NCBI GenBank assembly: GCA_050253415.1
Contig: JBFWJC010000001.1
Coordinates: 384,001 to 448,000 of the forward strand
DNA: 64,000 nucleotides
Reading direction: 5' to 3'
Source: Pedobacter sp.
GTDB lineage: Bacteria; Desulfobacterota; Desulfuromonadia; Desulfuromonadales; Syntrophotaleaceae
Shown in pieces: positions 42,593 to 57,239 of the stretch (position 1 is the stretch's first letter; every line of letters starts with the position of its first letter). A model generated the notes under the pieces. That model did not search any database. It saw only the letters and a program-made list of their open reading frames with translations, and was not told where the DNA came from. The position numbers and the translations under genes are program-made.

Positions 42593-44445
42593 TGGCCGAG
42601 TTGCTGTTTCTGATACCGTTACTGCCGCTGTGTGGGGCTTTGATTGTTTTGTTTGCCGGTGGGCGCATGCCCCGTCGCCTGCTGACTGGCGTGGCGATCG
42701 CTTCTGTGGCCGCTTCGGCCGCAGTGACTTTGTGGTTGTGGCCGCTGGCCGCTGACCGCACCCGGGTAACGCTGTTCACCTGGTTTGACGCCGGTTCGTT
42801 GCAGGTGCCGATGGAATTGTTATTCTCCCCGCTGGCGGCCTGTATGGCGTTGATGGTGACCGGCGTTTCGGCTCTGATCCATGTCTACGCTGCTTGCTAC
42901 CTGCATCACGAACCCGATATCCGACGCTTCTTCACCTTGTTCAACCTGTTTGTGTTCGCCATGCTGGTGATAGTTCTGGCGGATAATCTATTGCTGTTGT
43001 TTCTTGGCTGGGAAGGGGTCGGATTCTGTTCCTATGCCCTGATCGGCTTCTGGTATCGCAATCCCGTTTTTGCGGCTGCCGGGCGTAAAGCATTTCTGGT
43101 TACGCGCGCCGCAGATGTGCTGTTCGGCATTGCACTGTTGTGGTTGTTCCACCTGACCGGTACCTTATCCATTTCGGCAATAAACCTGCAGGCCGCGTCG
43201 CTACCTCCGGGTAACGTAACCTTCCTGGCCTTATTGCTGTTGGCCGGCGCCTGCGGAAAATCGGCCCAGTTGCCTTTCAGCTCCTGGCTGCCGGATGCCA
43301 TGGCCGGCCCCACCCCGGTGTCGGCCTTGATCCATGCCGCCACCATGGTTACCGCTGGCGTGTATCTGCTGTGTCGGTTATTCCCGCTGATCTCATTGTC
43401 GCCAATCGCCCTTTGCGTCATCGGGCTGGTTGGTGCCTCTACCGCTTTTTACGGCGCCACTTGTGCGCTGGTGCAGAGAGACATCAAGAAAGTCCTGGCC
43501 TATTCAACCATCAGTCAGGTCGGTTACATGTTTCTTGCGGTTGGCGCCGGTACCATTACCGGGGCCATGTTCCACCTGCTCACTCATGCCTTTTTCAAAG
43601 CCTTGCTGTTCATGGTGGCCGGTGCGGTCATCCATCTGGCTTCCGGCGAACAGGATCTGTTTCGCCTTGGCCGGCTGTCCAAGCGGTCGCCGATGCTTTT
43701 CTGGCTGTTGCTGGCCGGATCTGTGGCCCTGGCCGGGGTTCCGTTGACGGCTGGTTTCTTTTCCAAGGATGCCATTCTGGCAGCCTGCTTCGCCCGACAC
43801 ACGCTATGGTGGACAAGCCTTGGCGTCGCCGGGTTGGTAACCGCTTTCCTGACCGCTATGTATGCTTTGCGGCTAGTGTATCTGCTTGTTGCCGACCGTG
43901 AGGTTGTATCGGGGTACGGCCCCGCACCGCGAGGACTGGTTTGGCCTTTGCTGCCCTTGGGTGTACTTGCCCTGGTTGGCGGACTACTTAATCTCCCCGA
44001 AGTTTGGGGTGGACATGCAGGTTTGGGGCGCTGGCTGGCAACCCCATCAGGGTTGTCACCCTCGCACGGCCTCGAATGGGGGCTTGCTGCCGTCACATTT
44101 TTATTGGTAGCGGGGGCCTGGTTTGTTATTCGAAATCGCTACCGGGTGCCGGCTTCACCAGTACCTGAGGGACCTTGGGTAGATTTTTTCATCACAGGTT
44201 GGCAGATTGATTCGCTGATCCGCTTTGCCGTTACGGCGCCCTTTGAAAGGCTCGGCGACCTGCTGGAAAGCTCCCTTGAGCGAAGTTTTACCACGACTTG
44301 GCCCGCCGGTCTCGGTCGGCTGTGTCAGGCTACCGGGCAGAAGCTGCGTGTATTTACCTCCGGTTCTGTAAGTCTTTACCTCGCCGCCATGGCTTGGGGC
44401 ATAATCCTGCTATTGACGATATTGCTGGTTTTTTTGACTTTATGA
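42589..44445 (+). CDS. nuoL: NADH-quinone oxidoreductase subunit L
   Basis: GWEGVG; GKSAQLP..WLPDAMAGPTPVSALIHAATMV. Confidence 0.95.
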   Translation: MMAELLFLIPLLPLCGALIVLFAGGRMPRRLLTGVAIASVAASAAVTLWLWPLAADRTRVTLFTWFDAGSLQVPMELLFSPLAACMALMVTGVSALIHVYAACYLHHEPDIRRFFTLFNLFVFAMLVIVLADNLLLLFLGWEGVGFCSYALIGFWYRNPVFAAAGRKAFLVTRAADVLFGIALLWLFHLTGTLSISAINLQAASLPPGNVTFLALLLLAGACGKSAQLPFSSWLPDAMAGPTPVSALIHAATMVTAGVYLLCRLFPLISLSPIALCVIGLVGASTAFYGATCALVQRDIKKVLAYSTISQVGYMFLAVGAGTITGAMFHLLTHAFFKALLFMVAGAVIHLASGEQDLFRLGRLSKRSPMLFWLLLAGSVALAGVPLTAGFFSKDAILAACFARHTLWWTSLGVAGLVTAFLTAMYALRLVYLLVADREVVSGYGPAPRGLVWPLLPLGVLALVGGLLNLPEVWGGHAGLGRWLATPSGLSPSHGLEWGLAAVTFLLVAGAWFVIRNRYRVPASPVPEGPWVDFFITGWQIDSLIRFAVTAPFERLGDLLESSLERSFTTTWPAGLGRLCQATGQKLRVFTSGSVSLYLAAMAWGIILLLTILLVFLTL

Positions 44446-44482
44446 TGTTTATTGATCTCCCTAACATACTTGCGAGCCAAGC

Positions 44483-45958
44483 ATGAATGGTCTGTCAAAC
44501 ATACCCTGGTTGTCCGTTTTGTTTTTCCTGCCGATCGTTGGGGCGCTGGCCTCCCTGGCTTGGGGCCGACGTGTCGCCGTGGTTACGGTTTTGCTGGAAG
44601 CAACTGTCGCCCTGCTCCTGCCTATTCAGATGGAATCCCGGTTTTCTCCCTGGATCCGTTTTGAGGATTGGGCCTGGATCGAACGTTACGGCGCTCGGCT
44701 TACCCTGGGGCTTGATGGCCTTTCGCTGCTATTGGTGTGGCTGACCGTTATCCTGCTGGCGGTTGCCGTGGGTCTTTCCTGGTCACGTTATCGGCAATCC
44801 GGTTTTTACGCTTTGCTGTTGACCAGTTGTAGCGGTATCCTGGGCGTTTTTCTGGCTCAGGATCTGCTGTTGTTCTATGTCTGCTGGGAAATTATGTTGC
44901 TGCCGCTGATCCTCTGCATTGCCTTATGGGGTGGCGCCAAGCGCGTTGAGGCCGCTTTTAAGCTGCTGCTGTTCACCCTGGCTGGCAGTCTGCTGATGTT
45001 GCTGGCTCTTTTGGGATTGTTTTTACTGCATGGTCGCCAGACCGGTGACTACATCTTTGCGCTGCAGGCTTTGAGGACCACGGTTATTCCTCCCGATCTT
45101 GCCCCCTGGCTGTTTGGATGTCTGGCGCTTGCATTTCTGGTCAAAGTTCCCGTTGTACCTTTGCATGGCTGGTTGCCAGATGCTTACCAGGAAGCACCTG
45201 CCGCGGTTACTTTGCTGCTCTCTGGCGTATTGGCCAAGGCTGGCATATTCGGTTTGGTACGTGTGGCGCTGCCATTGTTTCCCGAAACCTGGCCCAGCTT
45301 TGTGCCTGTATTGGGTGTCCTGGCGTTGGTGAGTATCGGTTACGGTGGCTGGCTGGCTTTTGTGCAGAACGATCTTAAACGCCTGGTGGCGTATGTTTCC
45401 GTCGCTCACCTCGGTTTTATCGCATTGGGTGTGGCAGCCTTTAATGCCATGGCTTTGCAGGGCGCGATGCTGCAACTGTTCAATCATGGCATAACCACGG
45501 CCGCACTATTCGTTCTTGTTGCACTGGTGGAACGTCGTACCGGCAGTCGTCAATTGCCTGAGCTGGGTGGACTCTGGTCCCGCACTCCGCAGCTTGGGGC
45601 CATGCTGCTGTTTTTTTCTCTGGCCACTCTGGGCCTTCCGGGTCTGAATATTTTCACCGGTGAAATCCTCATTCTACTAGGCTCTTTCGCTGCTCATCCC
45701 TGGTGGGGTGTCGCCGGTATGTTTGGAGTTTTACTGGCGGCTTGTTATACGCTGCGCATGACGCAGGGAGTGTTGTGGGGCGTGCCCCGTGGCCCGGATA
45801 TTATGAAGGATTTGAATCGCGGTGAGACGCTCCTTTTAGCTCCGCTGGTTGGCCTGGTTTTGTGGTTCGGGCTTTATCCTCTGCCTTTTTTGAGGTTACT
45901 TCGCGGTCCCGTTGAACAACTCCTTGCCCGTCTCGTCACGACAGGGGGGCTGCCATGA
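44483..45958 (+). CDS. nuoM: NADH-quinone oxidoreductase subunit M
   Basis: LGLDGLS; KVPVVPLHGWLPDA; LGLPG. Confidence 0.92.
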   Translation: MNGLSNIPWLSVLFFLPIVGALASLAWGRRVAVVTVLLEATVALLLPIQMESRFSPWIRFEDWAWIERYGARLTLGLDGLSLLLVWLTVILLAVAVGLSWSRYRQSGFYALLLTSCSGILGVFLAQDLLLFYVCWEIMLLPLILCIALWGGAKRVEAAFKLLLFTLAGSLLMLLALLGLFLLHGRQTGDYIFALQALRTTVIPPDLAPWLFGCLALAFLVKVPVVPLHGWLPDAYQEAPAAVTLLLSGVLAKAGIFGLVRVALPLFPETWPSFVPVLGVLALVSIGYGGWLAFVQNDLKRLVAYVSVAHLGFIALGVAAFNAMALQGAMLQLFNHGITTAALFVLVALVERRTGSRQLPELGGLWSRTPQLGAMLLFFSLATLGLPGLNIFTGEILILLGSFAAHPWWGVAGMFGVLLAACYTLRMTQGVLWGVPRGPDIMKDLNRGETLLLAPLVGLVLWFGLYPLPFLRLLRGPVEQLLARLVTTGGLP

Positions 45959-47349
45959 CCTGGAACACCTTATTGGCGCTGCTGCCGTTACTGGTGCTTT
46001 TTATCGGTTCCGTGTCCGTATTGTTTGTATCGGGACGAAGAGCTCTGTTGTATGGCATTTTCTGCGCCTTGCTTGCCGCAGGACTTGCCTGGTGGCCTTG
46101 CGTCTCAGCCGTATCCGACACGCCATTAGTCTCGAGTGGACTATTTGCCCGGGGTTGCTGGACTGCATGGGCGCTGCTTGGTGCAGCGACCTGCTCTCTG
46201 TCGGAGCGTTACAGGGCAAGTCGTCGGTTTGCGCCGCAGGAATTTGCCGCGCTGGTACTGTTTTGCGTTCTTGGGATGTCGATCCTGTCGGCCAGCACCT
46301 CTTTGGTCAGCCTGTTTCTTGGTCTGGAGGCGATGACCCTGGCGTTTTATGTGCTTATTGCTTTTGATCGGGACAACCCTACCGGCGCCGAAGCCGGTCT
46401 CAAATACCTGCTGCCCGGATTTCTGGCCAGTGCTCTGCTGGCTTTTGGCATCGCACTCGTGTATGCCGCCACCGGTACTTTTTCCCTTCATGGTAATGTA
46501 TCCCTGCCGGTTACAGGGACTACCATGCATACCATTGCGATTCTGGGATGGACCCTGTTCCTTTGTGCCATCGCGTTTAAGGCATCCCTGGCGCCCTTTC
46601 ACCTGTGGACGCCCGATGTCTACCAGGGCGCGCCAGCGCCGGTGGCCGGATTGCTCGCCAGCGGGTCCAAGGGTGCGGTGTTTGCTGTGTTGCTAGCCAG
46701 TATTCCCTTAGCGCTTATCGCTCCTTTGCGACCGCTTTTGGCAGCCCTGGCGGCGTTGTCCATGCTTGCCGGAACATTTGCCGCGCTGCCTCAGACCAAT
46801 CTCAAGCGCATGTTGGCTTACTCCTCCGTGGTCCATATGGGATACATGGTGCTGGCGCTACTGACGGGACAGCAGGCAGGGCTTGAAGCCGGCTTGTTTT
46901 ACCTGCTCAGTTACGGAGCTGCAACCGTGGCCGCTTTTGGGCTGTTGGCCTCCATGTCTGACTCCAGTGGCGAACCTCAGAACTACGCCGCTTTGGAAGG
47001 GTTAGCCGGCAGGTCTCCATGGCGGGCGGCCCTGCTTACGGTTCTGCTTCTGTCGCTGGCCGGCTTCCCCCCTTTGGCTGGGTTTATGGGCAAATTCGTT
47101 CTTTTTAGCGCGGCCCTGGATGCCGGTTATGTGTGGCTGGTTGCGCTGGCCTTATTTTCTTCCTTGGTTTCCTGCTATTACTATTTGCGTCCGATTGTGC
47201 GCCTTTTCCGTTCAGGTCCCACCTCTGCACACTCCGTGGCCGCTAACGGCGGTGAGGGGGTGGTGTTTGTGCTTTGCACTATTATTATTGTGACCGCAGG
47301 AATTTACCCCGGTCCATTTTTCCGGATGATTTCCGCAATTGCGCCTTGA
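45955..47349 (+). CDS. nuoN: NADH-quinone oxidoreductase subunit N
   Basis: EAGLKY; FKASLAPFHLWTPDVYQGAP; LSLAGFPPLAGFMGK. Confidence 0.93.
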   Translation: MTWNTLLALLPLLVLFIGSVSVLFVSGRRALLYGIFCALLAAGLAWWPCVSAVSDTPLVSSGLFARGCWTAWALLGAATCSLSERYRASRRFAPQEFAALVLFCVLGMSILSASTSLVSLFLGLEAMTLAFYVLIAFDRDNPTGAEAGLKYLLPGFLASALLAFGIALVYAATGTFSLHGNVSLPVTGTTMHTIAILGWTLFLCAIAFKASLAPFHLWTPDVYQGAPAPVAGLLASGSKGAVFAVLLASIPLALIAPLRPLLAALAALSMLAGTFAALPQTNLKRMLAYSSVVHMGYMVLALLTGQQAGLEAGLFYLLSYGAATVAAFGLLASMSDSSGEPQNYAALEGLAGRSPWRAALLTVLLLSLAGFPPLAGFMGKFVLFSAALDAGYVWLVALALFSSLVSCYYYLRPIVRLFRSGPTSAHSVAANGGEGVVFVLCTIIIVTAGIYPGPFFRMISAIAP

Positions 47350-47367
47350 TCCGTCGTGCGAGGGCCC

Positions 47368-47772
47368 ATGAATATCACCGAACGCATTGCACAGTTTCTG
47401 TCGGCTGAAGGTTTTGCTGTCGCCGGCGCTTCGACCAATCGTGACAAATACGGCAACAAGGTCCTGCGTTGCTACATGCAGCATAGCAAGCGCGTTGTAC
47501 CCGTCAATCCGCATGTCTCGGCTGTGGAAGGCCTAGCCAGCGTCGCCAGTGTTTCGGATTTGCCGGGTAATATTCAAAGTCTCTCCATTATCACCCCACC
47601 CCGCATTACCGAGCAGGTTGTAGAAGAAGCCATCGCCAAAGGAATCCCTAATATCTGGATGCAGCCTGGAGCTCAAAGCGATGAAGCCATACGTCGTTGT
47701 GAGGACGCTGGCATCAACCTGATTGCTGACGGAAGCTGTCTGTTGGTGGTGCTCGGTTACCACGAAGTCTGA
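47368..47772 (+). CDS. CoA-binding protein (YccU-like)
   Basis: AVAGAS..DKYG, PVNP, IWMQPG. Confidence 0.85.
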   Translation: MNITERIAQFLSAEGFAVAGASTNRDKYGNKVLRCYMQHSKRVVPVNPHVSAVEGLASVASVSDLPGNIQSLSIITPPRITEQVVEEAIAKGIPNIWMQPGAQSDEAIRRCEDAGINLIADGSCLLVVLGYHEV

Positions 47773-47926
47773 TGGGTGATAAAAACCAGTTTTCATTTTT
47801 GGAATCTGTTGGTTTTCGGTGTAAACGGCCCCATATATGATTTTGGTGCAGCGGCTTTGTTTCTGATTGTGGTGTATACTGCCACGGAGTGCTAACTTCT
47901 TTTTTTACAATTCTTTCTTGCCCTTG

Positions 47927-47950
47927 CGTTATGTCCTGTGATATATAGCC
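47927..47950 (+). promoter_or_regulatory. Putative ModE-type operator upstream of the Mo-related region
   Basis: CGTTATGT-N8-ATATAGCC imperfect palindrome, preceded by CCTTG. Confidence 0.6.
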
Positions 47951-48193
47951 ATGGTGCCTTAGTGAAAGTTTATAAACAGAACACAGGTTCTTCCTGTTAC
48001 TAAAATATGCTTCAACGCATATTCCTTTCACCTCTAACTATCCTTTCTCATTATTCTTTTTGAGAGTGGACGGTTTTGACCTTTTATTTCGCGTAGATTT
48101 TTGGTCATACCGCTACTTCTTTTAGGCACAGTTGATCCTTGCAATTGAACGAGTAATTCATAGTGTCTTTAAAGGTAAGACAGGATATCTGGA

Positions 48194-48391
48194 ATGCATG
48201 ATAGTGGCGAGCGCGACGTTCGTAGGCAGGTAGTCACCAATATCAGAGTGCCTAACTCCGTTTGGAAAAAACGCGTATGCGAGACCTTGCTCGATTTAAA
48301 TATAATCCCTGAACATTTTTCAGGTAAATTGGTGATCTCCTTTAAAAATGGGGGCATCAGCTACATAGAGAAGACTCAGACATTTAAATAA
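48194..48391 (+). CDS. Small YezD/DUF2292-like protein, copy 1
   Basis: C-terminus FSGKLVISFKNGGISYIEKTQTFK is near-identical to the paralog at 50417; family call is inferred from motif shape. Confidence 0.65.
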   Translation: MHDSGERDVRRQVVTNIRVPNSVWKKRVCETLLDLNIIPEHFSGKLVISFKNGGISYIEKTQTFK

Positions 48392-48394
48392 GTT

Positions 48395-48482
48395 GCGCTA
48401 ATTTCGACCTCTGCCTGATCAACAGACCTAACGAAACCCGCACCCAATACCAAAATCAATGGTATTGGTGCGGGTTTTTTTT
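48395..48482 (+). ncRNA. Conserved attenuator-like cis RNA element, copy 1
   Basis: GCGCTaATTTCGaCCTCTGC..CAGACcTAaCGAAACCCGCA-[stem]-TGCGGGTTTTTTTT; repeated at 50681. Confidence 0.6.
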
Positions 48483-49011
48483 GTTTATTTTTTTCTACGA
48501 TCCTAAGGGAAAGAATTTTATTAATTTACGAAATCAACAACCTTGAGTTGTTGGCAACATCGGAGGTTTTATGGCTATTGTAAAATGTGCATTTTGTGGG
48601 GAAGACGCGGATAGTGAAAATTACGGAGTTAAGCAATGTTCGAAATGTGGCTTGTGGTTTTGCCATAAACACCTTGGTCAGTACAAGTCGCAATGCATAG
48701 TGTGTAAAGAATATGCTCTCAAAAATAAGTACGGGAGATGAAATTTGCAAAAGTACTTTTAAAGTAACGTACATTTAAAATTAAATTTTGGATTGATCTC
48801 AGGAGTCAATAGCGAGGGTTTCATAAAGAAGTCTTTTTATTCTGGCCTCGTGCCCTCTCTTTTTAATCCTCGCTGCCTGATTTTCGAGGCAATTATCGTT
48901 ACGTTACCGAGTGGTGTGAGTCTAATCCAACGTCGAATGCTTGGCATTTTTTGCTCCCCCCAATGGAAACGCAACTTTTTCTAAACGTATAATGATAAAG
49001 GAGTCTGAATT

Positions 49012-49431
49012 ATGAAAGTTTGCTTTCCTATATCAGAAGATTTTGGTGTGAAAAGTACTGTTTATGGACATTTCAATTCTGCCCCTTTCTTTCTTGTCGT
49101 AGATACCGATACAAAGGAAACCCTGACTATAGCTAATTGCGATCCAAAAAATCCTTTAGCAGGGTGCGATCCATTCAGTGCTCTTAAGGTTTACGATATC
49201 GATGGTATTATTGCCGGATGTATGGGAGATAGTGCTCTTCAAGCCATGAACCTCTGCGGGTTCCGGGTATATGAGGCAGAATCCGAAAATCTTATTGAAA
49301 ATATGGAACTGTTTAACCAAGAGAAGCTTCAGGAAAGCGTCGTGCAAAATAGTGCTGCCGAGGGAAGATGCTCTGATGGCGAAAGTTCTTCAGGCGAGGG
49401 TTGCGGTCACGATCATGATCACGAGCTTTGA
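49012..49431 (+). CDS. NifB/NifX family (dinitrogenase Fe-Mo cofactor-binding fold) protein
   Basis: MKVCFP..VYGHFNSAPFFLVVD; Cys/His-rich tail GCGHDHDH; AAGGAG RBS. Confidence 0.8.
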   Translation: MKVCFPISEDFGVKSTVYGHFNSAPFFLVVDTDTKETLTIANCDPKNPLAGCDPFSALKVYDIDGIIAGCMGDSALQAMNLCGFRVYEAESENLIENMELFNQEKLQESVVQNSAAEGRCSDGESSSGEGCGHDHDHEL

Positions 49432-50416
49432 CCATCAAAATTAATGCGATAGCAAAAAATCCTGCGATAGAAGAAAAAAATTCCTAAAAGTCCTGGTTAT
49501 TCCCAGGGAAGAGGGCATTCCTGGTATCTGAGAACATGAAGAAACGCGGTAATACGGTAGCTCTGGATTTAATTGGGCGGTTCGCTCTAGATGCTCTCTA
49601 GGGCGAACCCGCCGTCAATTAATGCAACCATGACTTCAGCCCAACAAGAGCTCCATACTTTCCCCCTCATCTCTCTGGGCGACAAGGAACATTATGCTCG
49701 ATGCCTTCGGTTAGTTACGGGCGCATTTGGATATGTCCTTTTTACGCTGGCAGTGACATCTGCAAAATTACTAAAAAAGGATTTAGGTATGTAAAGCCTA
49801 CTTCGCACGACCCAATTATTGAATACAGATATCAAATGTCTAATTGTTTATCTAAATCGGCTCCGCTTGCCGATTATCTGACTAGCGAAAAACGATGTAG
49901 AATCTCTACCTCGTTGTAGCGGAAACCTGTCGAGTACCATAATCACTTCAATTTACCTGTTCTTCAAATCCCGATACCGTCTGTAATGCCGTATTAACAT
50001 AAAGCTTGTTTTGAAGATTTGGTTCGCTGGGCGGAAGGAATACCCAGCTAATGTGAATATGTAAAGAGCTGTGAAAATCACCAAAAAAAGTTCGTTTACA
50101 CAAAACCATGTGTTGGAAATAGTTGTTTACGGTAACTAATAGTCTTTTTTGTCTTTTACTGTTATTTTTACCTTGCTTGTTATTATCTGCTTTGTTAAAA
50201 AGATTGCCACACTGCTTGATTCTTTGGAAAAAAACAGCGTTCGAAAGTTTTTTATTTTGAACTTCTCCCTGGATCGAAAATTTGTGAAGGGGGGATATAG
50301 CCCCAAGCAGCGGGGCGTTGGCGGATTGGCCTCTACGGACTGTTTGTGAAGTATGGAAACTGACGAACATGAAGTTTCCGCCGCAAAATTCATCGCCAAA
50401 CACGCAGGTGATAATT

Positions 50417-50650
50417 ATGCATATCCCTGAACTTTGTTATCAGGACAAACTATTGGAAGAAAAATCACGGACCCGAACACAAAAGTACTCTGGCCAGGCT
50501 GGGCCCAAAAATGTGGCTGTCTGCAAGAGATCTATAGCAACTTTTTTGGCAAATACCGAATTGATTACGCCGAACTTCTCAGGGAAACTTATTATCTCTT
50601 TTAAGGAGGGTGGCATCAGCTATATAGAAAAGGTAGAGCAAATCAAGTAA
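50417..50650 (+). CDS. Small YezD/DUF2292-like protein, copy 2
   Basis: C-terminus FSGKLIISFKEGGISYIEKVEQIK; AGGTG upstream of ATG 50417. Confidence 0.65.
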   Translation: MHIPELCYQDKLLEEKSRTRTQKYSGQAGPKNVAVCKRSIATFLANTELITPNFSGKLIISFKEGGISYIEKVEQIK

Positions 50651-50680
50651 CTTCCCTCTACATAAAAAATAAATAGTCAC

Positions 50681-50764
50681 GCGCTTATTTCGTCCTCTGC
50701 TTAGTCAGACTTAGCGAAACCCGCATCGATTCCTGAAATTCAGGATATCAATGCGGGTTTTTTT
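50681..50764 (+). ncRNA. Conserved attenuator-like cis RNA element, copy 2
   Basis: GCGCTtATTTCGtCCTCTGC..CAGACtTAgCGAAACCCGCA-[stem]-TGCGGGTTTTTTT, ending about 18 nt before the next ATG. Confidence 0.62.
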
Positions 50765-50782
50765 ATTATCAGAACATAAGGA

Positions 50783-51817
50783 ATGAAGAGCATGCAACAA
50801 ATCGTCCCCGTTGAACAAGCTGTAGGTAAAATTCTTTCTCATGATATCACGCGTATAGTACCCGGAGAATTCAAGGGGCGAGCCTATAAAAAAGGGCACA
50901 TGATTACAGCCGAGGATGTTCCACAGCTCAAAAAACTTGGCAAGGACCACATTTATATTCTTAACCTCGGTGATGGCCTGGTGCATGAGAATGAAGCAGC
51001 TCAACGTATTGCGAAGGCGATCAGCGGGCCGTTCCTTCATTTCGGAGAGCCGAATCAAGGTAAAATTGAATTAACCTCGGAGCTGGATGGGCTGCTTAAA
51101 ATAAACCTTAACCTATTGAATCAGCTAAATGAAATTCCGGACGTTACCATCGCAACAGTATTAACCAACCAGCCCGTGCGCGTCGGGTCGACGGTTGCCG
51201 GCACGCGCATTATCCCCCTGTATACCCAAGAAGAAAATCTTCTTCAGCTAGAAAATCTCTGCCGCCAAAATTCTGCGTTAATCACTGTAAAACCTTACCA
51301 GCACTTTCGTGTGGGATTGATTACTACTGGAACCGAAGTGTTTCTTGGGCGTATCCCAGACGGTTTCGGGCCAATAGTAAAAAGCAAATTTGAAGCATAT
51401 GGAAGTGAAGTTTGTCGCCAAGATATCGTTCCTGACGATATATCAAAAATAGCCTCTGCTATTCATGGTCAGATTGCAGAAGGTGCGCAAATGGTCATTT
51501 TGACAGGAGGAATGTCTGTTGATCCAGACGATCTTACCCCCGCTTCTATACGGGCCACAGGCGCGAAAATCGTAATCTATGGTGCCCCTACCTATCCCGG
51601 TGCCATGTTCATGTTGGCAGAATTGCATGGTGTTCCCATTATCGGCCTTCCTGGCTGCACGATGTATCACAAAGCTACAATTTTTGAACTCGTAGTTACT
51701 CGCCTGCTTGCTGGCGAAACCATTACGCGTTCGGACGTTATCGCATTGGGCCATGGAGGATTATGCGCCGGTTGCCAGGATTGCCATTACCCCAATTGCG
51801 GATTCGGCAAAAGCTGA
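50783..51817 (+). CDS. MoeA/MogA-like molybdopterin-binding protein with C-terminal Cys cluster
   Basis: LSHDITRIVPG, TGGMSVDPDDLTP, PGAMF, CAGCQDCHYPNC. Confidence 0.85.
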   Translation: MKSMQQIVPVEQAVGKILSHDITRIVPGEFKGRAYKKGHMITAEDVPQLKKLGKDHIYILNLGDGLVHENEAAQRIAKAISGPFLHFGEPNQGKIELTSELDGLLKINLNLLNQLNEIPDVTIATVLTNQPVRVGSTVAGTRIIPLYTQEENLLQLENLCRQNSALITVKPYQHFRVGLITTGTEVFLGRIPDGFGPIVKSKFEAYGSEVCRQDIVPDDISKIASAIHGQIAEGAQMVILTGGMSVDPDDLTPASIRATGAKIVIYGAPTYPGAMFMLAELHGVPIIGLPGCTMYHKATIFELVVTRLLAGETITRSDVIALGHGGLCAGCQDCHYPNCGFGKS

Positions 51818-51881
51818 GGTTCCGTAATACGAGAAACATCCCTTTTCTAACTGAAAACGACCAACAAGGAGGAAGACAGGA

Positions 51882-54737
51882 ATGATCAAGAAGACTCTAA
51901 ATGTCAACGGTATCGACCGTGTCCTGATCATCGATCAGGAGTCACTGCTTAGCGATGTTTTGCGCAAGCAGTTACAGCTGACAGGTACCAAGGTAGGTTG
52001 CGGTACCGGTCAATGCGGTGCTTGCAGTGTCATCGTGGATGGCAAACTGGTGCGCTCTTGCGTAACCAAGATGAAACGGATTCCGGACCTGGCCAAAATC
52101 ACTACCATCGAAGGGATCGGTTCGCCTCTCAATTTGCATCCCATTCAGAAGGCTTTTGTCAAAAACGGAGCGATCCAATGCGGGTTCTGTACTCCCGGCT
52201 TTGTTGTGTCGACCAAGCTGCTGCTTGATGAGAACCCCGATCCGACCCGTGAGGAAGTGCGTGATTGGTTTCAGAAGCATCGCAATGCCTGCCGCTGCAC
52301 CGGCTATGTCATGATCGTCGACTCGGTCATGGACGCCGCCAAGGTGCTGCGCGGTGAAATGGCGGAATCCGCCCTTGACTTTAAATTGCCGTCTGATGGC
52401 AAAGTCTACGGTACTTGTATGCCGCGTCCGACTTCGGTACCCAAGGTTTGCGGTCTGTGGGACTTCGGCGAAGACATGCGCCAGCAACTTCCGGACAATA
52501 CCTTGGAATGCGCCCTCGTGCAGGCGGAAGTAGCCCATGCCAATATCAGGGGCATCGATACCTCCGAAGCGGAAAAGATGCCCGGCGTTGTGAAAGTGGT
52601 AACGCACAAGGACATCAAAGGTAAAAACCGCATTACCGGTCTGATCACCTTCCCCACCAACAAGGGGGACGGCTGGGATCGCCCCATTCTTAACGATGAA
52701 AAGATCTTCCAGTTCGGCGACGTTCTGGCCATCGTTTGCGCCGATACCCGCGAACACGCCAAGGCGGCAGCCAAGAAGGTGGTACTCGATCTCGAGGTCC
52801 TGCCGGCTTACATGAACGCTCTCGCAGCCAAGGCCGAGGATGCCATCGAGATTCATCCCGGCACTCCGAATGTCTACTACGATTGCATTGTCAAGAAAGG
52901 CGAGGAAACCAAGCCGTATTTTGATAAAGCCGCTCACGTTATCGAAGGCAGCTACTACCTTGGCCGCCAGCCTCATATGCCCCTCGAGCCCGATGTCGGT
53001 TTTGCCTATATCGATGACGAGGATCGTGTTGTCGTGCATTCCAAGTCGATCGGCATCCATCTGCATCACGCCATGATCTGTCCGGGACTCGGCCTCGAGC
53101 CTGAAAAACTGGTCATACGGCAGAACCCTACCGGCGCTACCTTCGGTTATAAGTTCAGCCCGACCATGGAAGCTTTGGTCGCTGCCGCCACCATGGCTAC
53201 CGGCCGCCCCTGTTTCCTGGGTTACGACTGGTTTCAGCAGCAGACCTACACCGGCAAGCGTTCCCCGGCATTCTTGAATGTGCGTCTGGCCGCCGACGAG
53301 GAAGGCAATTTCCTCGCTCTGGAAACCGACTGGGATCTCGACCATGGTCCCTATTCCGAGTTTGGTGACCTGGTTACCTGCCGCCAGGCCCAGTTCACTG
53401 GGGCTGGTTACGATATCAAGCATATCCGCGGCCATGGTCGTACCGTCGCCACCAACCATGCCTGGGGCTCCGCTTTCCGCGGTTATGGCTCGCCGCAGGC
53501 GTTCTTGGCTTCGGAATCGTTGGTCGACGAACTCGCCAAGAAAATGGGTGTGGATCCCTTGGAACTTCGTTACAAGAACATTTATCGTCCCGGCGCCACC
53601 ACCCCGACCGGGCAGACACCGGAAGTTTTCTGTTTCGAAGAGATGTTCGACATTCTGCGTCCCAAATACAAGGATGCACTGGAGCGGGCAAGAACCGGTT
53701 CCACGGAAACCAAGAAGCGCGGCGTCGGCATTTCCCTCGGGATTTACGGCTGCGGCCTTGACGGCCCGGACACCTCCGGTGCCTGGGCTCAGTTGGAAGA
53801 AGATGGCAGCGTTACCATCGGTACCGCCTGGGAATGCCATGGCCAGGGCGCGGATATGGGCACGGTTGCTTTCGCGCACGAAGCCCTGCGTCCGCTTGGT
53901 CTGACCCCCGAGCAGATCCACCTGAGCATGTGCGACACATCTCTGCACCCGAATGCCGGTCCCTCCGGCGGCAGCCGCCAGAATGTCGTTTCCGGGAATG
54001 CCATCCACGCAGCCAGTGTCAATTTGCTCAATGCCATGCGCAAAAACAATGGCACCTATCGAACCTACGGAGAAATGATCGCCGAAGGGATCGATGTCAG
54101 GCATGAGGGGACCTATACCACCCCTTGCACACATATGGATCTCGATGATCAACAAGGCAATCCTTTCTGCATCTACATGTATGCCTTGTTCATGTCCGAG
54201 GTAGTCGTGGATATCACCACCGGTAAGACCGAAGTGGTTAAAATGACCTATGTTGGCGACAACGGTACCATCACCAATCGTCTGTTGGTTGACGGCCAGG
54301 TCTATGGCGGTCTGGCCCAAGGCATAGGCCTGGGTCTTAGCGAAGACTTCGAATTTATCAAAGCCCATTCGAATATGATCGGTGCCGGGTTCCCCTTCAT
54401 CAAGGACGTTCCCGATGACTTGGAGCTGATCTACGTCGAAACGCCGCGTAAAGACGGAGCTCTCGGACAAGGTGGTTGTGGCGAAGGTCCGCTGACTTCT
54501 CCGCACGTCTCCATTATTAATGCCATCGACCATGCTTGCGGGGCACGTATCCGCTCCCTTCCTGCATACCCCGAGAAGGTTCTGCAGGCATTGCAGTCCG
54601 AGAAGAAGTCTTTCGACATTGAGGATGCACTGGAAGGCGGCTGGATTTCCGACAGCGTTGATGCGGAACCGCCTACCAAGAAGAAAGCAGCCAAAAAAGC
54701 AGCCGCGACGGGTTCCCAGCCTGCAGCTGCCGAGTGA
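51882..54737 (+). CDS. mop: Molybdopterin-dependent aldehyde oxidoreductase (xanthine oxidase family, Mop-like)
   Basis: Two [2Fe-2S] sites (GCGTGQCGAC; QCGFCTPG..CRC), TFGYK, AFRGYG, GCGEG; AGGAGG RBS. Confidence 0.92.
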   Translation: MIKKTLNVNGIDRVLIIDQESLLSDVLRKQLQLTGTKVGCGTGQCGACSVIVDGKLVRSCVTKMKRIPDLAKITTIEGIGSPLNLHPIQKAFVKNGAIQCGFCTPGFVVSTKLLLDENPDPTREEVRDWFQKHRNACRCTGYVMIVDSVMDAAKVLRGEMAESALDFKLPSDGKVYGTCMPRPTSVPKVCGLWDFGEDMRQQLPDNTLECALVQAEVAHANIRGIDTSEAEKMPGVVKVVTHKDIKGKNRITGLITFPTNKGDGWDRPILNDEKIFQFGDVLAIVCADTREHAKAAAKKVVLDLEVLPAYMNALAAKAEDAIEIHPGTPNVYYDCIVKKGEETKPYFDKAAHVIEGSYYLGRQPHMPLEPDVGFAYIDDEDRVVVHSKSIGIHLHHAMICPGLGLEPEKLVIRQNPTGATFGYKFSPTMEALVAAATMATGRPCFLGYDWFQQQTYTGKRSPAFLNVRLAADEEGNFLALETDWDLDHGPYSEFGDLVTCRQAQFTGAGYDIKHIRGHGRTVATNHAWGSAFRGYGSPQAFLASESLVDELAKKMGVDPLELRYKNIYRPGATTPTGQTPEVFCFEEMFDILRPKYKDALERARTGSTETKKRGVGISLGIYGCGLDGPDTSGAWAQLEEDGSVTIGTAWECHGQGADMGTVAFAHEALRPLGLTPEQIHLSMCDTSLHPNAGPSGGSRQNVVSGNAIHAASVNLLNAMRKNNGTYRTYGEMIAEGIDVRHEGTYTTPCTHMDLDDQQGNPFCIYMYALFMSEVVVDITTGKTEVVKMTYVGDNGTITNRLLVDGQVYGGLAQGIGLGLSEDFEFIKAHSNMIGAGFPFIKDVPDDLELIYVETPRKDGALGQGGCGEGPLTSPHVSIINAIDHACGARIRSLPAYPEKVLQALQSEKKSFDIEDALEGGWISDSVDAEPPTKKKAAKKAAATGSQPAAAE

Positions 54738-54822
54738 TGTGATTAGTCTGTAATACCCCCGTCTCTGGCACCGGTTTTTTTCCGGGTGCCGGTTGCCAGA
54801 GGTGTCTTAGAGGGTGTGAGGT

Positions 54823-54864
54823 CGATGGGGAGTAGCCCAACTGTACTCCCCATCGCCTTCTTTT
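54823..54864 (+). terminator. Hairpin after mop
   Basis: CGATGGGGAGTA / TACTCCCCATCG, then CCTTCTTTT. Confidence 0.55.
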
Positions 54865-54920
54865 ATCTTAAACCAGGGGATCCTTGTTGGAGCAAGCAAT
54901 CGAAGGGGAGGAAGTACTCG

Positions 54921-57239
54921 ATGGAAAAGGAACAACGCATAGCGTGGGAGGCGCAATGTATTCAGGAAGAGCCTCCGGCGTGTTCGGCGAACTGTCCTCT
55001 CCATGTAGACGTTCGTCAGTTCATGGGGGAAATGGCCAAGGGTAACCTGGAGGAGGCCTACCGGCTTTTGACCAGGAATATGCCTTTCCCCGGAATATTG
55101 GGACGTATTTGCAACCATCCCTGTGAGACGAAATGCCGCCGGCGTGAAGTCGGCGAGGCCCTCGCCATCGGTTCTCTGGAACGGCTTTGTGTGCAACATC
55201 ACGGATCACCTGACAAGGTCAAACTCCTGCCGCGCAAAAGTAAGAATGTGGTGGTTATCGGTGGCGATGTTGCCGGTCTTGTCGCTGCTCATGATCTGCG
55301 GAAAAAAGGATTCGGTGTCACGTTGCTGGAGACCGGAACTCAACTGGGGGAAACTTTTCGTACATTCCGCGAAGATTTGCTGCCGGGTGCGGTGATCGAC
55401 GAAGAACTGGCCGTTCTGAAGGAGATGCGGGTAGAAATTCAACTAGGCGCATCCCTGGACGATGTTGAGTTCGAGCGCCTTTGCACTGAATTTGATGCCG
55501 TGTTCATTGATCGCACCTCCCCAACCTGCGCGTCCCTGAACCTAGAGAAAGATGATGCCGGCCTGATTGCCATCGATCCTGTTACCGGTGGCACCCCACG
55601 TCCGGAAGTGTTTGCCGGTGGTCAAGACGGTGATGCGCCGATCATGCTGGCCGCGGCCGGTCGCAAAGGGGCGTTGTCCATCGAGCGTTTTTTGCAGCTG
55701 GCTCATATGACCATCGGTCGGGAAAATGATGGACCCTACGAAACCAGACTTTACACCAATCTTGAAGGGATCGCTCCTCTTGACCGGGTTCGTCCCGCTA
55801 ACCCTGATGCCGGTTATTCGCTCGCCGAGGCAACACAGGAAGCGGCTCGTTGTATTCAGTGTGAGTGTATGGAGTGCGTCAAGGTCTGTCAGTACATGGC
55901 TCACTACAAGAAGTATCCGAAAAAATATATCCGCCAGTTCTTCAATAACGAAAAGGTTTTGCTCGGAGCTTCCCACAGTTCCAATCAGATGATCAACTCC
56001 TGTACAAATTGCGGGTTGTGCGCCACCGTCTGCCCCAATAACCTTTCCATGGGGGAGGTTTGTCTTGCGGGACGGCACGCCATGTTGCAGGGCAACTATA
56101 TGCCCCCCTCTGCCCACGAATTCGCCTTGCAGGATATGGCTTTCAGCACCAGTGAGGAGTTCGTACTCAGCCGTCACCAACCGGGTATGCAACAGAGCAA
56201 ATATCTCTATTTTCCAAGTTGCCAGTTGAGCGCTACCGCTCCTGCGGAGGTGGTGGAATCGTATCGTGCCCTGTGTGACAACCTCTCCGGCGGCGTCGGT
56301 ATTCTGCTCGGTTGCTGTGGGGCGCCCGCTTTCTGGTCCGGTCGCGAGACCTTGTTCCGCGAGACCCTGGACACCATTTGCCAACAATGGCAGTCCATGG
56401 GTAAACCTGAAGTAATTACCGCCTGTTGTACTTGCCAGAGCGTGTTCAAGGAGCACTTGCCCGAGATTACCGTGAAGCCTCTTTGGCAGATACTTGAGAC
56501 GGGGTCGCTGATCGACTCTGTCTGCCAGAAAGAAGCCTCCTCCGGGCGGCCCATCGCCGTGGTCGACCCCTGTGTCAGTCGCAGCGATCCGGAAACTCAG
56601 AGCGGGGTGCGCCTGATCCTCGAAAAACTTGGTTTCACCCTTGAAGAGTTGCCTCTTTCCGGCGAAATGGCAGAGTGCTGCGGTTACGGCGGGCTGGTAT
56701 TCAATGCCAACCCTAAACTTGATAACGCCATTGTGGCCCGTCGGGCCGCCGAAAGTGATAAGGACTATTTGGCGTACTGTGCCATGTGCCGAGATAAGTT
56801 CGTAAGTGCCGGAAAGCGTACCGCCCACCTTCTTGAACTGTTATTCCCATCGGTAGCCGGCAACGATCCCTGGTCGCGCGGCTGGATATCCTGGTCTGAC
56901 CGGCGTGCTAACAGGCAGCGCGTGAAGCGGGAACTGCTTGACAGCTTGGGCGAAAACAGGGAGCGTGCCATGGAGCCTTACGAAAAAATTGTTCTTTATA
57001 TCGAACCCGAACTACTTCGCATTCTTGACAATCGCCGTATTCTGGAAAGTGACCTGCGGCAGGTCGTCCTTTATGCCGAAGAGACAGGTCGACGACTGCG
57101 TCACAATCTGAGCGGCCTGTATCGCGCTAATTTTAAACTGGGCAATACCACCTTCTGGGTTGATTACGCCCCCGAAATCGAAGGTTACCGTATTCACAAT
57201 GCATACTGTCACCGTATGAACGTAACGGGGGTGAAATAA
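54921..57239 (+). CDS. GltD-like / ferredoxin dicluster / CCG-domain fusion oxidoreductase
   Basis: PACSANCP..GRICNHPCE; two CxxCxxCxxxC motifs; two CCG motifs. Confidence 0.82.
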   Translation: MEKEQRIAWEAQCIQEEPPACSANCPLHVDVRQFMGEMAKGNLEEAYRLLTRNMPFPGILGRICNHPCETKCRRREVGEALAIGSLERLCVQHHGSPDKVKLLPRKSKNVVVIGGDVAGLVAAHDLRKKGFGVTLLETGTQLGETFRTFREDLLPGAVIDEELAVLKEMRVEIQLGASLDDVEFERLCTEFDAVFIDRTSPTCASLNLEKDDAGLIAIDPVTGGTPRPEVFAGGQDGDAPIMLAAAGRKGALSIERFLQLAHMTIGRENDGPYETRLYTNLEGIAPLDRVRPANPDAGYSLAEATQEAARCIQCECMECVKVCQYMAHYKKYPKKYIRQFFNNEKVLLGASHSSNQMINSCTNCGLCATVCPNNLSMGEVCLAGRHAMLQGNYMPPSAHEFALQDMAFSTSEEFVLSRHQPGMQQSKYLYFPSCQLSATAPAEVVESYRALCDNLSGGVGILLGCCGAPAFWSGRETLFRETLDTICQQWQSMGKPEVITACCTCQSVFKEHLPEITVKPLWQILETGSLIDSVCQKEASSGRPIAVVDPCVSRSDPETQSGVRLILEKLGFTLEELPLSGEMAECCGYGGLVFNANPKLDNAIVARRAAESDKDYLAYCAMCRDKFVSAGKRTAHLLELLFPSVAGNDPWSRGWISWSDRRANRQRVKRELLDSLGENRERAMEPYEKIVLYIEPELLRILDNRRILESDLRQVVLYAEETGRRLRHNLSGLYRANFKLGNTTFWVDYAPEIEGYRIHNAYCHRMNVTGVK

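Follow-up and report, generated by a model that had tools for sequence, protein, structure and literature searches.

Two units of small-protein gene, Moco-II RNA and terminator

We analysed a stretch of 64,000 nucleotides (nt) from a genome labelled Pedobacter sp. (GTDB family Syntrophotaleaceae, class Desulfuromonadia; assembly GCA_050253415.1, contig JBFWJC010000001.1, positions 384,001 to 448,000), which is called the window below. Between positions 48194 and 50764 of the window, ahead of genes for a molybdopterin-dependent oxidoreductase, a gene for a small protein followed by the RNA motif Moco-II and an intrinsic terminator occurs twice. This two-unit arrangement, which is real and conserved, consists of the following features.

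48194..48391, + strand: type B small-protein gene, 65 amino acids (aa), YezD-like with one predicted helix and a beta-hairpin, isoelectric point (pI) 9.65
48394..48441, + strand: Moco-II RNA copy 1, RF01713, 43.1 bits (gathering score 35), E 4.6e-05, model positions 1-46 of 46
48434..48482, + strand: intrinsic terminator 1, left arm GAAACCCGCACC overlapping the 3' end of the motif, -28.4 kcal/mol, then 8 U
50417..50650, + strand: type A small-protein gene, 77 aa, pI 9.23, with the shared C-terminal hairpin and an additional N-terminal MxVPE(I/L) helix segment
50680..50724, + strand: Moco-II RNA copy 2, RF01713, 45.9 bits, E 1e-05, model positions 1-46 of 46
50716..50764, + strand: intrinsic terminator 2, left arm overlapping the 3' end of the motif, -26.3 kcal/mol, then 7 U

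An earlier note, made from the letters of this DNA alone, had described two small open reading frames (ORFs) with a common C-terminus, each followed by the same non-coding motif, and all of these are indeed present, well beyond what chance would give. The common C-terminus reads FSGKL(V/I)ISFK(N/E)GGISYIEK. The motif 3' of each ORF, GCGCUwAUUUCGwCCUCUG...CAGACyUArCGAAACCCGCA, is 46-48 nt long, near-identical between the copies and followed by a GC-rich hairpin and a U-run. It is separated from the ORF by 2 nt in the unit at 48194 and by 29 nt in the unit at 50417. The type A gene starts with an ATG, with AGGTGA 6 nt before it, and a longer frame with a TTG start begins at 50318. Position 50764 is the last of the U-run of copy 2 and position 50783 the first of the following ORF, which agrees with the proximity of this copy to the molybdenum gene cluster that had been pointed out.

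Comparison of both repeats with Rfam 15 using cmscan identified them as Moco-II (RF01713), with scores above the gathering score over the full model. Both contain the P1 and P2 hairpin between the conserved flanks GCGC...UUCG and CGAAACCCGC. A terminator and then molybdenum-related genes, for a MoCF_biosynth protein and a molybdopterin aldehyde oxidoreductase, lie 3' of the window motifs, in line with the description of RF01713, which we take to include an intrinsic terminator and molybdenum-cofactor-related genes downstream. The same search gave no match at E<=10 in window positions 44000-56000 to the Moco riboswitch RF01055 or to another credible Rfam family. RF01055, likewise an RNA leader ahead of molybdenum-cofactor genes, is a much larger, multi-helix RNA. 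Since both repeats match RF01713, the RNA itself is already known. The suggestion that it was possibly undescribed, against which the earlier note had itself named an Rfam match as the telling observation, had to be given up, as Moco-II was listed in 2010 (PMC2864571).

Moco-II was reported from Proteobacteria as a cis-regulatory RNA (Weinberg et al. 2010, Genome Biol 11:R31; PMC2864571). In the main-text table of that survey its row has a '?' in one column, and a supplementary table (supplementary file 3) marks it 'Y TT' with 8 members. The seed alignment contains sites in NC_007498.2, NC_009483.1, NC_008609.1 and NC_007404.1, and the seed consensus in supplementary file 5 is identical to that of the window RNAs. 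As far as the table and these files go, the window copies are alike to the published motif in hairpin, flanks, fused terminator, type of downstream molybdenum gene and bacterial group, with no difference at the level of the RNA. What the window adds is a small-protein gene coupled to the motif, of which there is no mention in the main-text table passage or in supplementary files 2-6, while the descriptive supplement of the survey may say more (PMC2864571). In a full-text literature search on 'Moco-II', the 2010 survey was the only paper naming the motif. The tie between protein and Moco-II thus appears to be undescribed in the literature searched.

The two corresponding stretches of 94 and 101 nt fold at -30.4 and -30.5 kcal/mol (z -4.9 and -5.0), and none of 200 shuffles was as stable. 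The motif alone folds into an outer GCG/CGC helix, P1 (UUUCG/CGAAA) and P2, with -7.4 and -9.6 kcal/mol for copies 1 and 2, and this fold sequesters GAAA and CGC of the left arm of the terminators, which reach -28.4 and -26.3 kcal/mol. We collected 72 distinct Moco-II sequences from all fetched loci, and 69 of them adopt the outer helix, P1 and P2 as the minimum-energy fold when the right arm of the terminator is excluded. The terminator gating with competing structures that the earlier note had read from the two copies is therefore borne out, in that the motif fold ties up the left arm of the terminator and the outer helix recurs in 69 of the 72 minimum-energy folds. The motif's own fold is a weak antiterminator, which loses unless it is stabilised or the shared segment GAAACCCGC is held; being far weaker than the terminators, it needs a stabilising factor for read-through.

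P2 covaries, with two-sided changes in three of its five pairs (15, 6 and 8 cells among the 72 motifs) and an observed score that none of 500 shuffles reached. P1, the outer GCG/CGC helix and the flanks are invariant over the 72 motifs, so that covariation is silent on these parts. Most conserved nucleotides stand in linear stretches around the one short covarying helix, and the best conserved stretch, CGAAACCCGC, forms the arm of the terminator. The two window terminators have inner stems that differ in sequence and keep their pairing in both copies, just as had been noted. By a strict script test a terminator follows 55 of the 72 motifs; the 17 without one include first copies of tandem pairs, and in some of the misses the U-run is interrupted. 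An additional base pair beside the outer helix was considered and dropped, as it can form in only 29 of the 72 motifs.

The small protein and its coupling to Moco-II across genomes

The products of the two ORFs belong to a family of basic proteins (57-84 aa, pI 9.2-9.7) with homologues in metagenomes and in metagenome-assembled genomes titled Pelobacter, Syntrophotalea and Desulfuromonadales. The family falls into two subfamilies: type B, to which the 48194 product belongs, has the pattern MRRQVVTD.RVPNSVWKKKVSDTL.ELNI....FSGKVVISFKDGGISYIEKTETFK, and type A, represented by the 50417 product, has an additional MSVPEIL..LE.QL segment and a variable linker. Pairwise comparison of 13 type B genes gave 482, 214 and 2223 differences at the first, second and third codon positions, and the codon differences comprise 1886 synonymous and 647 non-synonymous ones, with about 180 and about 2300 in shifted frames. 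Both ORFs are real protein genes, paralogues under purifying selection.

AlphaFold2, run on type B with a 30-row alignment, predicted a helix (residues 21-34) and two strands (44-51 and 54-62) with a predicted local distance difference test score (pLDDT) of 77.9. Pfam and NCBIfam returned only sub-threshold Flavodoxin_4 matches for the two window proteins. For the model, Foldseek against the PDB found nothing at E<=0.001, and the best hit of a wider PDB comparison was GnsA with Z 2.3 (root-mean-square deviation 4.7, 48 residues aligned). A predicted heterodimer of A and B scored 0.37 against 0.00 for the best of three controls, with runs agreeing in at least 78% of contacts and a partner pLDDT of at least 55. 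The mark applied here is reached by 116 of 157 solved complexes and by 2 of 215 mismatched pairs; at scores of 0.60 or below, it is reached by only 18 of the 157 solved complexes and by both passing mismatches. The prediction lends weak support to a contact between A and B and does not settle whether oligomers form.

The distribution of protein and RNA was compared in two samples of 151 genomes each, one from the order and one from the class, which together hold 18 distinct Moco-II genomes spanning 4 families and 8 genera. A search for genomes in which the motif and the small ORF co-occur had been recommended in the earlier note, and the two matched exactly in both samples. In the order sample, Moco-II was found in 12 of the 151 genomes and strong protein matches (E<=3e-17) in exactly those 12; both parts are missing from six genomes of the same family, and two genomes without the motif match only weakly (about 1e-7). 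Correspondingly, 11 of the 151 genomes of the class sample carry Moco-II and exactly those 11 have strong protein matches (E<=2e-19), with only weak matches (2e-8 to 4e-4) in ten others.

Moreover, protein gene and motif are usually close neighbours. For 22 of the 23 strong protein genes of the order sample the motif lies on the same strand within 261 nt downstream, and for 21 of them within 80 nt; the exception to close adjacency (G035) has a distance of 754 nt. Moco-II also lies 30-40 nt after the ORF at all five genome-contig loci, and at gathering score within about 140 nt at 24 of 33 metagenome loci. Four further metagenome loci (L022, L025, L026 and L027) have a degenerate Moco-II and a terminator at the equivalent place, whereas of the others one ends at a contig edge, two show nothing and two encode distant relatives only. 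Type A and type B genes occur together, 1.6-4.7 kb apart, in 11 of the 12 carriers of the order sample, and 6 of these 11 genomes have a third motif just upstream of type A.

In sister genera this third Moco-II, with its terminator, lies in the spacer 90-150 nt before the type A ATG. In the window, the spacer before the type A gene yielded no third Moco-II at E<=10, and the roughly 1 kb between the NifX-like gene and the type A gene (49432-50416) holds no convincing gene. A truncated third small-ORF remnant, a 37-aa frame matching at E 5e-9, was seen in another genome (G070:C1:2352716-2352906, - strand, locus L074); Moco-II and a terminator follow 44 nt later, ahead of a second aldehyde oxidoreductase paralogue. 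In this genome the whole unit seems to have been duplicated, after which the ORF decayed.

The genes accompanying the two units in the window are the following.

48571..48741, + strand: zinc-ribbon protein, 56 aa, four cysteines, with only weak zinc-finger matches in Pfam
49012..49431, + strand: NifX-like protein, 139 aa, Nitro_FeMo-Co domain (PF02579, E 1.2e-10), position conserved in the cluster
50783..51817, + strand: MoCF_biosynth (molybdopterin-binding) domain protein (PF00994, E 1.8e-25), the proposed first gated gene
51882..54737, + strand: molybdopterin-dependent aldehyde oxidoreductase (NF045668, 1615.6 bits, cut-off 1100)
54786..57239, + strand: pyridine nucleotide-disulfide oxidoreductase / dicluster-binding protein (NF045663, 1005.3 bits, cut-off 530), likely the redox partner in the operon

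In the order sample, the NF045668 oxidoreductase is above its cut-off in the 12 Moco-II genomes and in one more (G133), in which only 489 nt separate the gene from the upstream end of its contig. Because the enzyme occurs in nearly the same genomes, this sample cannot separate a link with the RNA from a link with the enzyme. The class sample can be used instead: four of its genomes (G170, G189, G218 and G221) have the oxidoreductase at 1660-1680 bits with neither Moco-II nor a strong protein match. Their clusters retain the zinc-ribbon (56-57 aa), NifX-like (131-134 aa), MoCF (340 aa) and aldehyde oxidoreductase genes, with no gap before the MoCF gene able to hold a leader, and no small-protein gene was found upstream. 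As these four clusters are kept without both parts, the protein follows the RNA and not the enzyme, and we rejected the possibility that the small protein is merely an accessory of the aldehyde oxidoreductase cluster.

Zinc-ribbon orthologues occupy the equivalent position at L095 and L104-L107 and are strictly conserved, even in genomes without Moco-II and the small protein. The regulatory module (window 48000-51500) has a G+C content of 38-44%, against 54-59% in the flanking nuo and oxidoreductase genes. A simple scan of 47700-51000 found 9 promoter-like sites, compared with 7.4 in shuffles, and 3 terminator-like sites, compared with 2.9, the terminator part of the scan being one that overlooks the long-loop terminators of Moco-II.

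Moco-II also stands at sites without a nearby small ORF. There it precedes a second aldehyde oxidoreductase, MobB and MoCF-domain genes; NuoE/NuoF/molybdopterin-oxidoreductase genes resembling an NAD-dependent formate dehydrogenase; a URO-D-like gene with an ATP-binding cassette (ABC) transporter; a LUD/TPP pair; and, in tandem, a methyltransferase/TonB receptor/periplasmic binding-protein operon beside an HTH_3 + PBP_like regulator. One genome (G209) has 9 motifs and 1 protein gene, and the regulon comprises up to 9-10 leaders per genome. Given the many motif sites without an adjacent small ORF, whatever reads the motif acts in trans or diffuses. The source genome itself has two further Moco-II copies outside the window (G000:C1:20260-20379, - strand, loci L001/L084; 60.7 and 43.2 bits), which stand in tandem with a terminator only after the second copy. 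This pair precedes a methyltransferase / TonB-dependent receptor / Peripla_BP_2 operon divergent from the HTH_3 + PBP_like regulator, and the tandem-motif operon recurs in five other genomes (G004, G105, G120, G090 and G110).

Relation to DUF2292/YezD and its own hairpin

A profile search of 1.84 billion representative proteins gave 92 matches at E<=1e-3, including 20 at E<=1e-10. Six longer proteins with repeated short matches were left out of the set of relatives; the remaining matches weaker than 1e-10 are 42-95 aa long and have the pattern WKK..L..L..I...FTGK..I.F..GG....EK.E..K. None of the 13 members in alignment A2 matched the PF10055 DUF2292 model (gathering score 22 bits) at E<=10, and 2 of 41 distant relatives matched DUF2292 below the threshold, at 18.2 and 17.3 bits. 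When compared by hhalign with alignment A7, which consists of 16 true DUF2292 proteins from the class sample, the narrow profile A3 of our family gave E 0.034 and the broadened profile A8 gave a probability of 63.6 and E 6.7e-5 over 44 columns. A protein-atlas search had its best score (0.84) with unnamed clusters and named DUF2292 only at a low score of 0.76, and a PDB sequence search with profiles A8 and A7 returned only spurious leucine-rich-repeat and trimethylamine-N-oxide-reductase matches. The AlphaFold2 model of DUF2292 has the same helix-strand-strand order as that of the small protein; in the wider PDB comparison its best Z was 3.1, with no fold assignment.

Judged by these profile comparisons, the Moco-II-linked family is probably a remote homologue of DUF2292 and not a member of it. 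The two are alike in size, in the predicted topology of one helix and a beta-hairpin, and in the pattern of a W, a helix, G-x-[VL]-x-[IL] and G-x-[IV]-x-x-[IV]-[ED]-K-x-E, whereas the Moco-II-linked family has six more residues between helix and hairpin. DUF2292 genes likewise have a conserved hairpin fused to a terminator after the gene, but the partner RNA is CUGACCGGAAAAACCGGAGGCC instead of Moco-II and the neighbours are cysK, sulfate-transport and NifH/NifB-like genes instead of molybdenum/tungsten enzymes. True DUF2292 genes sit behind cysK, sulfate-transporter or sulfate-binding-protein genes, and hairpin CUGACCGGAAAAACCGGAGGCC with a terminator follows the gene at 9 of 16 loci, listed here.

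L111, L112, L115-L120 and L123: DUF2292 gene with hairpin CUGACCGGAAAAACCGGAGGCC, in class genomes G154, G159, G167, G174, G178, G185, G189, G195 and G200

The hairpin has no Rfam match at E<=1. Its strict pattern occurs 1-7 times per genome in all five genomes tested, with stem changes from CCGG/CCGG to CCAG/CUGG. Among 101 class genomes it was found in 17, and 16 of these 17 are among the 22 that carry DUF2292; a reversed control pattern gave one match. In the literature searched, DUF2292 and YezD are mentioned only in passing, and no study of their function was found.

Paired mini-genes with terminators recur beyond the molybdenum context in one genome (G024), where two distant homologues (frames of 71 and 75 aa; L085 6021-6506, - strand) stand in tandem near hypD/hypE-like genes, with the terminator GACCCGCGCC...GGUGCGGGUCUUUU between the frames and no Moco-II present. 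Group II intron domains were seen near DUF2292 loci in two Geobacter-like genomes (L109 12-186, - strand, and L123 2164-2235, - strand; RF02001 at 144 bits and RF00029 at 48 bits).

A proposed protein-dependent gate, its alternatives and its meaning

By analogy with the hut operon, we lean towards HutP-like control: the small protein would bind Moco-II and thereby keep the terminator from acting. In Bacillus subtilis, hutP is the first gene of the hut operon, directly upstream of the terminator that it controls, and HutP is a ligand-activated RNA-binding protein that prevents this terminator from forming, so that the structural genes are read. The layout described here is alike, with motif and terminator within 80 nt downstream of 21 of the 23 strong protein genes. 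In contrast to HutP, the small protein is about half the size, has a different RNA site and no sequence or fold relation that we found, and it comes as two paralogous units with a regulon of up to 9-10 leaders per genome. HutP was absent from the structural matches of the small-protein model and the members had no significant Pfam match, which does not exclude a similarity to HutP.

Under the proposed mechanism, the region would comprise two units of a protein-dependent transcription gate, each made up of a small gene, Moco-II and a terminator that shares GAAACCCGC with the motif. The small protein would bind the nearly invariant Moco-II sequence, either by itself or as an oligomer of A and B, and probably while carrying a molybdenum- or tungsten-related signal. 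Binding would hold the shared segment, the terminator hairpin could not form, and RNA polymerase would continue. Beyond copy 1, read-through would reach the zinc-ribbon and NifX-like genes, and beyond copy 2 the genes for the MoCF-domain protein, the aldehyde oxidoreductase and the partner; Moco-II leaders elsewhere in the genome would be served by the protein in trans. Where type A is placed between two motifs, its product may feed back on its own expression. That protein and RNA bind physically, that this switches the genes on and not off, and that the signal is of this kind is our inference; a small RNA-binding protein is favoured because, on the energetics, read-through takes a factor able to overcome a dominant terminator. 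The earlier note had proposed that the small protein, its translation or a ligand controls read-through: phyletic co-occurrence, adjacency and joint loss with the RNA speak for the protein, and control by translation of the ORF found no support as a general mechanism.

The main rival reading is that Moco-II is a true riboswitch for a molybdenum- or tungsten-related small molecule, and that the small proteins are co-inherited accessories, such as carriers or chaperones of the ligand or cofactor, without contact with the RNA. The motif stands in the 5' leaders of several molybdenum/tungsten operons with no small gene adjacent, its conserved core is fused to an expression platform, no activity is known for the YezD family, and protein and RNA lie in one DNA segment, so that they could be gained or lost together. 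In addition, the '?' in the table row of Moco-II presumably stands in the column for the riboswitch call. Weinberg et al. list the motif as cis-regulatory with this '?' (PMC2864571). A riboswitch, however, needs no dedicated protein, yet none of the 18 distinct motif genomes is without the protein and no strong match occurs elsewhere. The four motif-less clusters have lost exactly the small gene and kept the zinc-ribbon, NifX-like, MoCF and aldehyde oxidoreductase genes; each of the two paralogues has its own motif directly downstream, as has the third, degenerate copy in G070; the layout recurs in DUF2292 with another RNA; and the conserved nucleotides are mostly linear stretches beside one short covarying helix. 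Taken with these points, we consider the riboswitch unlikely, though it keeps real weight. Alternatively, the protein could bind Moco-II and promote termination, or act on RNA stability or translation. TRAP and PyrR are leader-RNA-bound proteins that choose between antiterminator and terminator in favour of termination. The conserved 5' strand GCGCnnAUUUCG could be a binding site, and holding it would free the terminator arm; a role beyond termination is hinted at by the 17 of 72 motifs, first tandem copies included, that lack a terminator by the strict test. But such help would add little to a terminator whose stability already exceeds that of the motif fold by about 17-21 kcal/mol, and the most conserved stretch, CGAAACCCGC, is the terminator arm. 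Unlike in the TRAP and PyrR systems, whose folds are unrelated, the energetics suggest a factor that opposes a dominant terminator, and we regard this alternative as a whole as improbable.

Translation-coupled attenuation, in which a ribosome stopping where the ORF ends masks the 5' strand of the motif, thereby setting the choice between terminator and antiterminator, with the peptide being secondary, seems to us very improbable. It would suit the type B genes of the window's family, which in 10 of 11 genomes have their stop only 4-15 nt ahead of the motif, where a terminating ribosome would cover GCGCnnAUUUCG. Against it, the type A stop lies 25-80 nt before the motif and other type B stops lie 62-260 nt before it, or 0.7-1 kb with genes between. 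The earlier suggestion of control by ORF translation thus finds no support as a general mechanism, since the distance from stop to motif runs from 1 to about 260 nt and, in other lineages, to 0.7-1 kb with two genes in between, and many motif operons have no small ORF at all (up to 26 of the 72 distinct motifs lack a neighbouring one by script count). Moreover, the ORFs contain no runs of regulatory codons and encode proteins of 57-84 aa with a predicted fold under strong purifying selection. Conserved, folded proteins of this size at stop-to-motif distances from 1 nt to about 1 kb are not what leader-peptide attenuation calls for.

Several observations also weigh against the protein-dependent gate. 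Small aptamers exist, and a 46-nt motif could bind a ligand directly. The small protein has no fold or sequence match to a known RNA-binding protein (best Z 2.3 and, for DUF2292, 3.1; nothing at E<=0.001 with Foldseek). In five genomes (G035, G179, G193, G205 and G219; families f12, f28 and part of f29) the only protein gene is separated from the motif downstream of it by 0.7-1 kb and two genes, which in the latter four are the zinc-ribbon and NifX-like genes, so that close adjacency is not universal; within about 14 kb of one strong protein gene (G195:C111) there is no motif. The genomes, being related, are not independent and, because protein and RNA are physically linked, joint inheritance or loss of one DNA segment could yield much of the phyletic pattern. 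The DUF2292 link, finally, fails the Pfam cut-off and reaches E 6.7e-5 only through a profile that includes two sub-threshold DUF2292 sequences.

We know of no ligand or mechanism described for Moco-II since it was catalogued. Should the protein-dependent gate be correct, a dedicated protein partner would explain this lack of a ligand. Tentatively, with a confidence that falls just short of even, we propose that Moco-II is no self-sufficient riboswitch but the RNA half of a two-part switch with a YezD-like mini-protein and that the DUF2292/YezD superfamily consists of widespread small RNA-binding antitermination factors, each with its own terminator-embedded hairpin: Moco-II for molybdenum/tungsten enzymes and CUGACCGGAAAAACCGGAGGCC for sulfur genes. 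Such factors may report the supply of tetrahedral oxyanions, namely molybdate or tungstate and sulfate. If true, this would provide a first function for a widespread family of tiny proteins that are annotated as hypothetical or missed, and it would define a molybdenum/tungsten-enzyme regulon in syntrophic and metal-reducing Desulfuromonadia that includes the aldehyde oxidoreductase, enzymes like NAD-dependent formate dehydrogenase, MobB and an outer-membrane uptake operon. The same principle would extend to sulfur genes of other lineages, provided that the DUF2292 parallel is sound. The RNA was known already; what appears to be new, in the literature searched, is its tie to a YezD-like mini-protein, which makes the function of this orphan motif directly testable.

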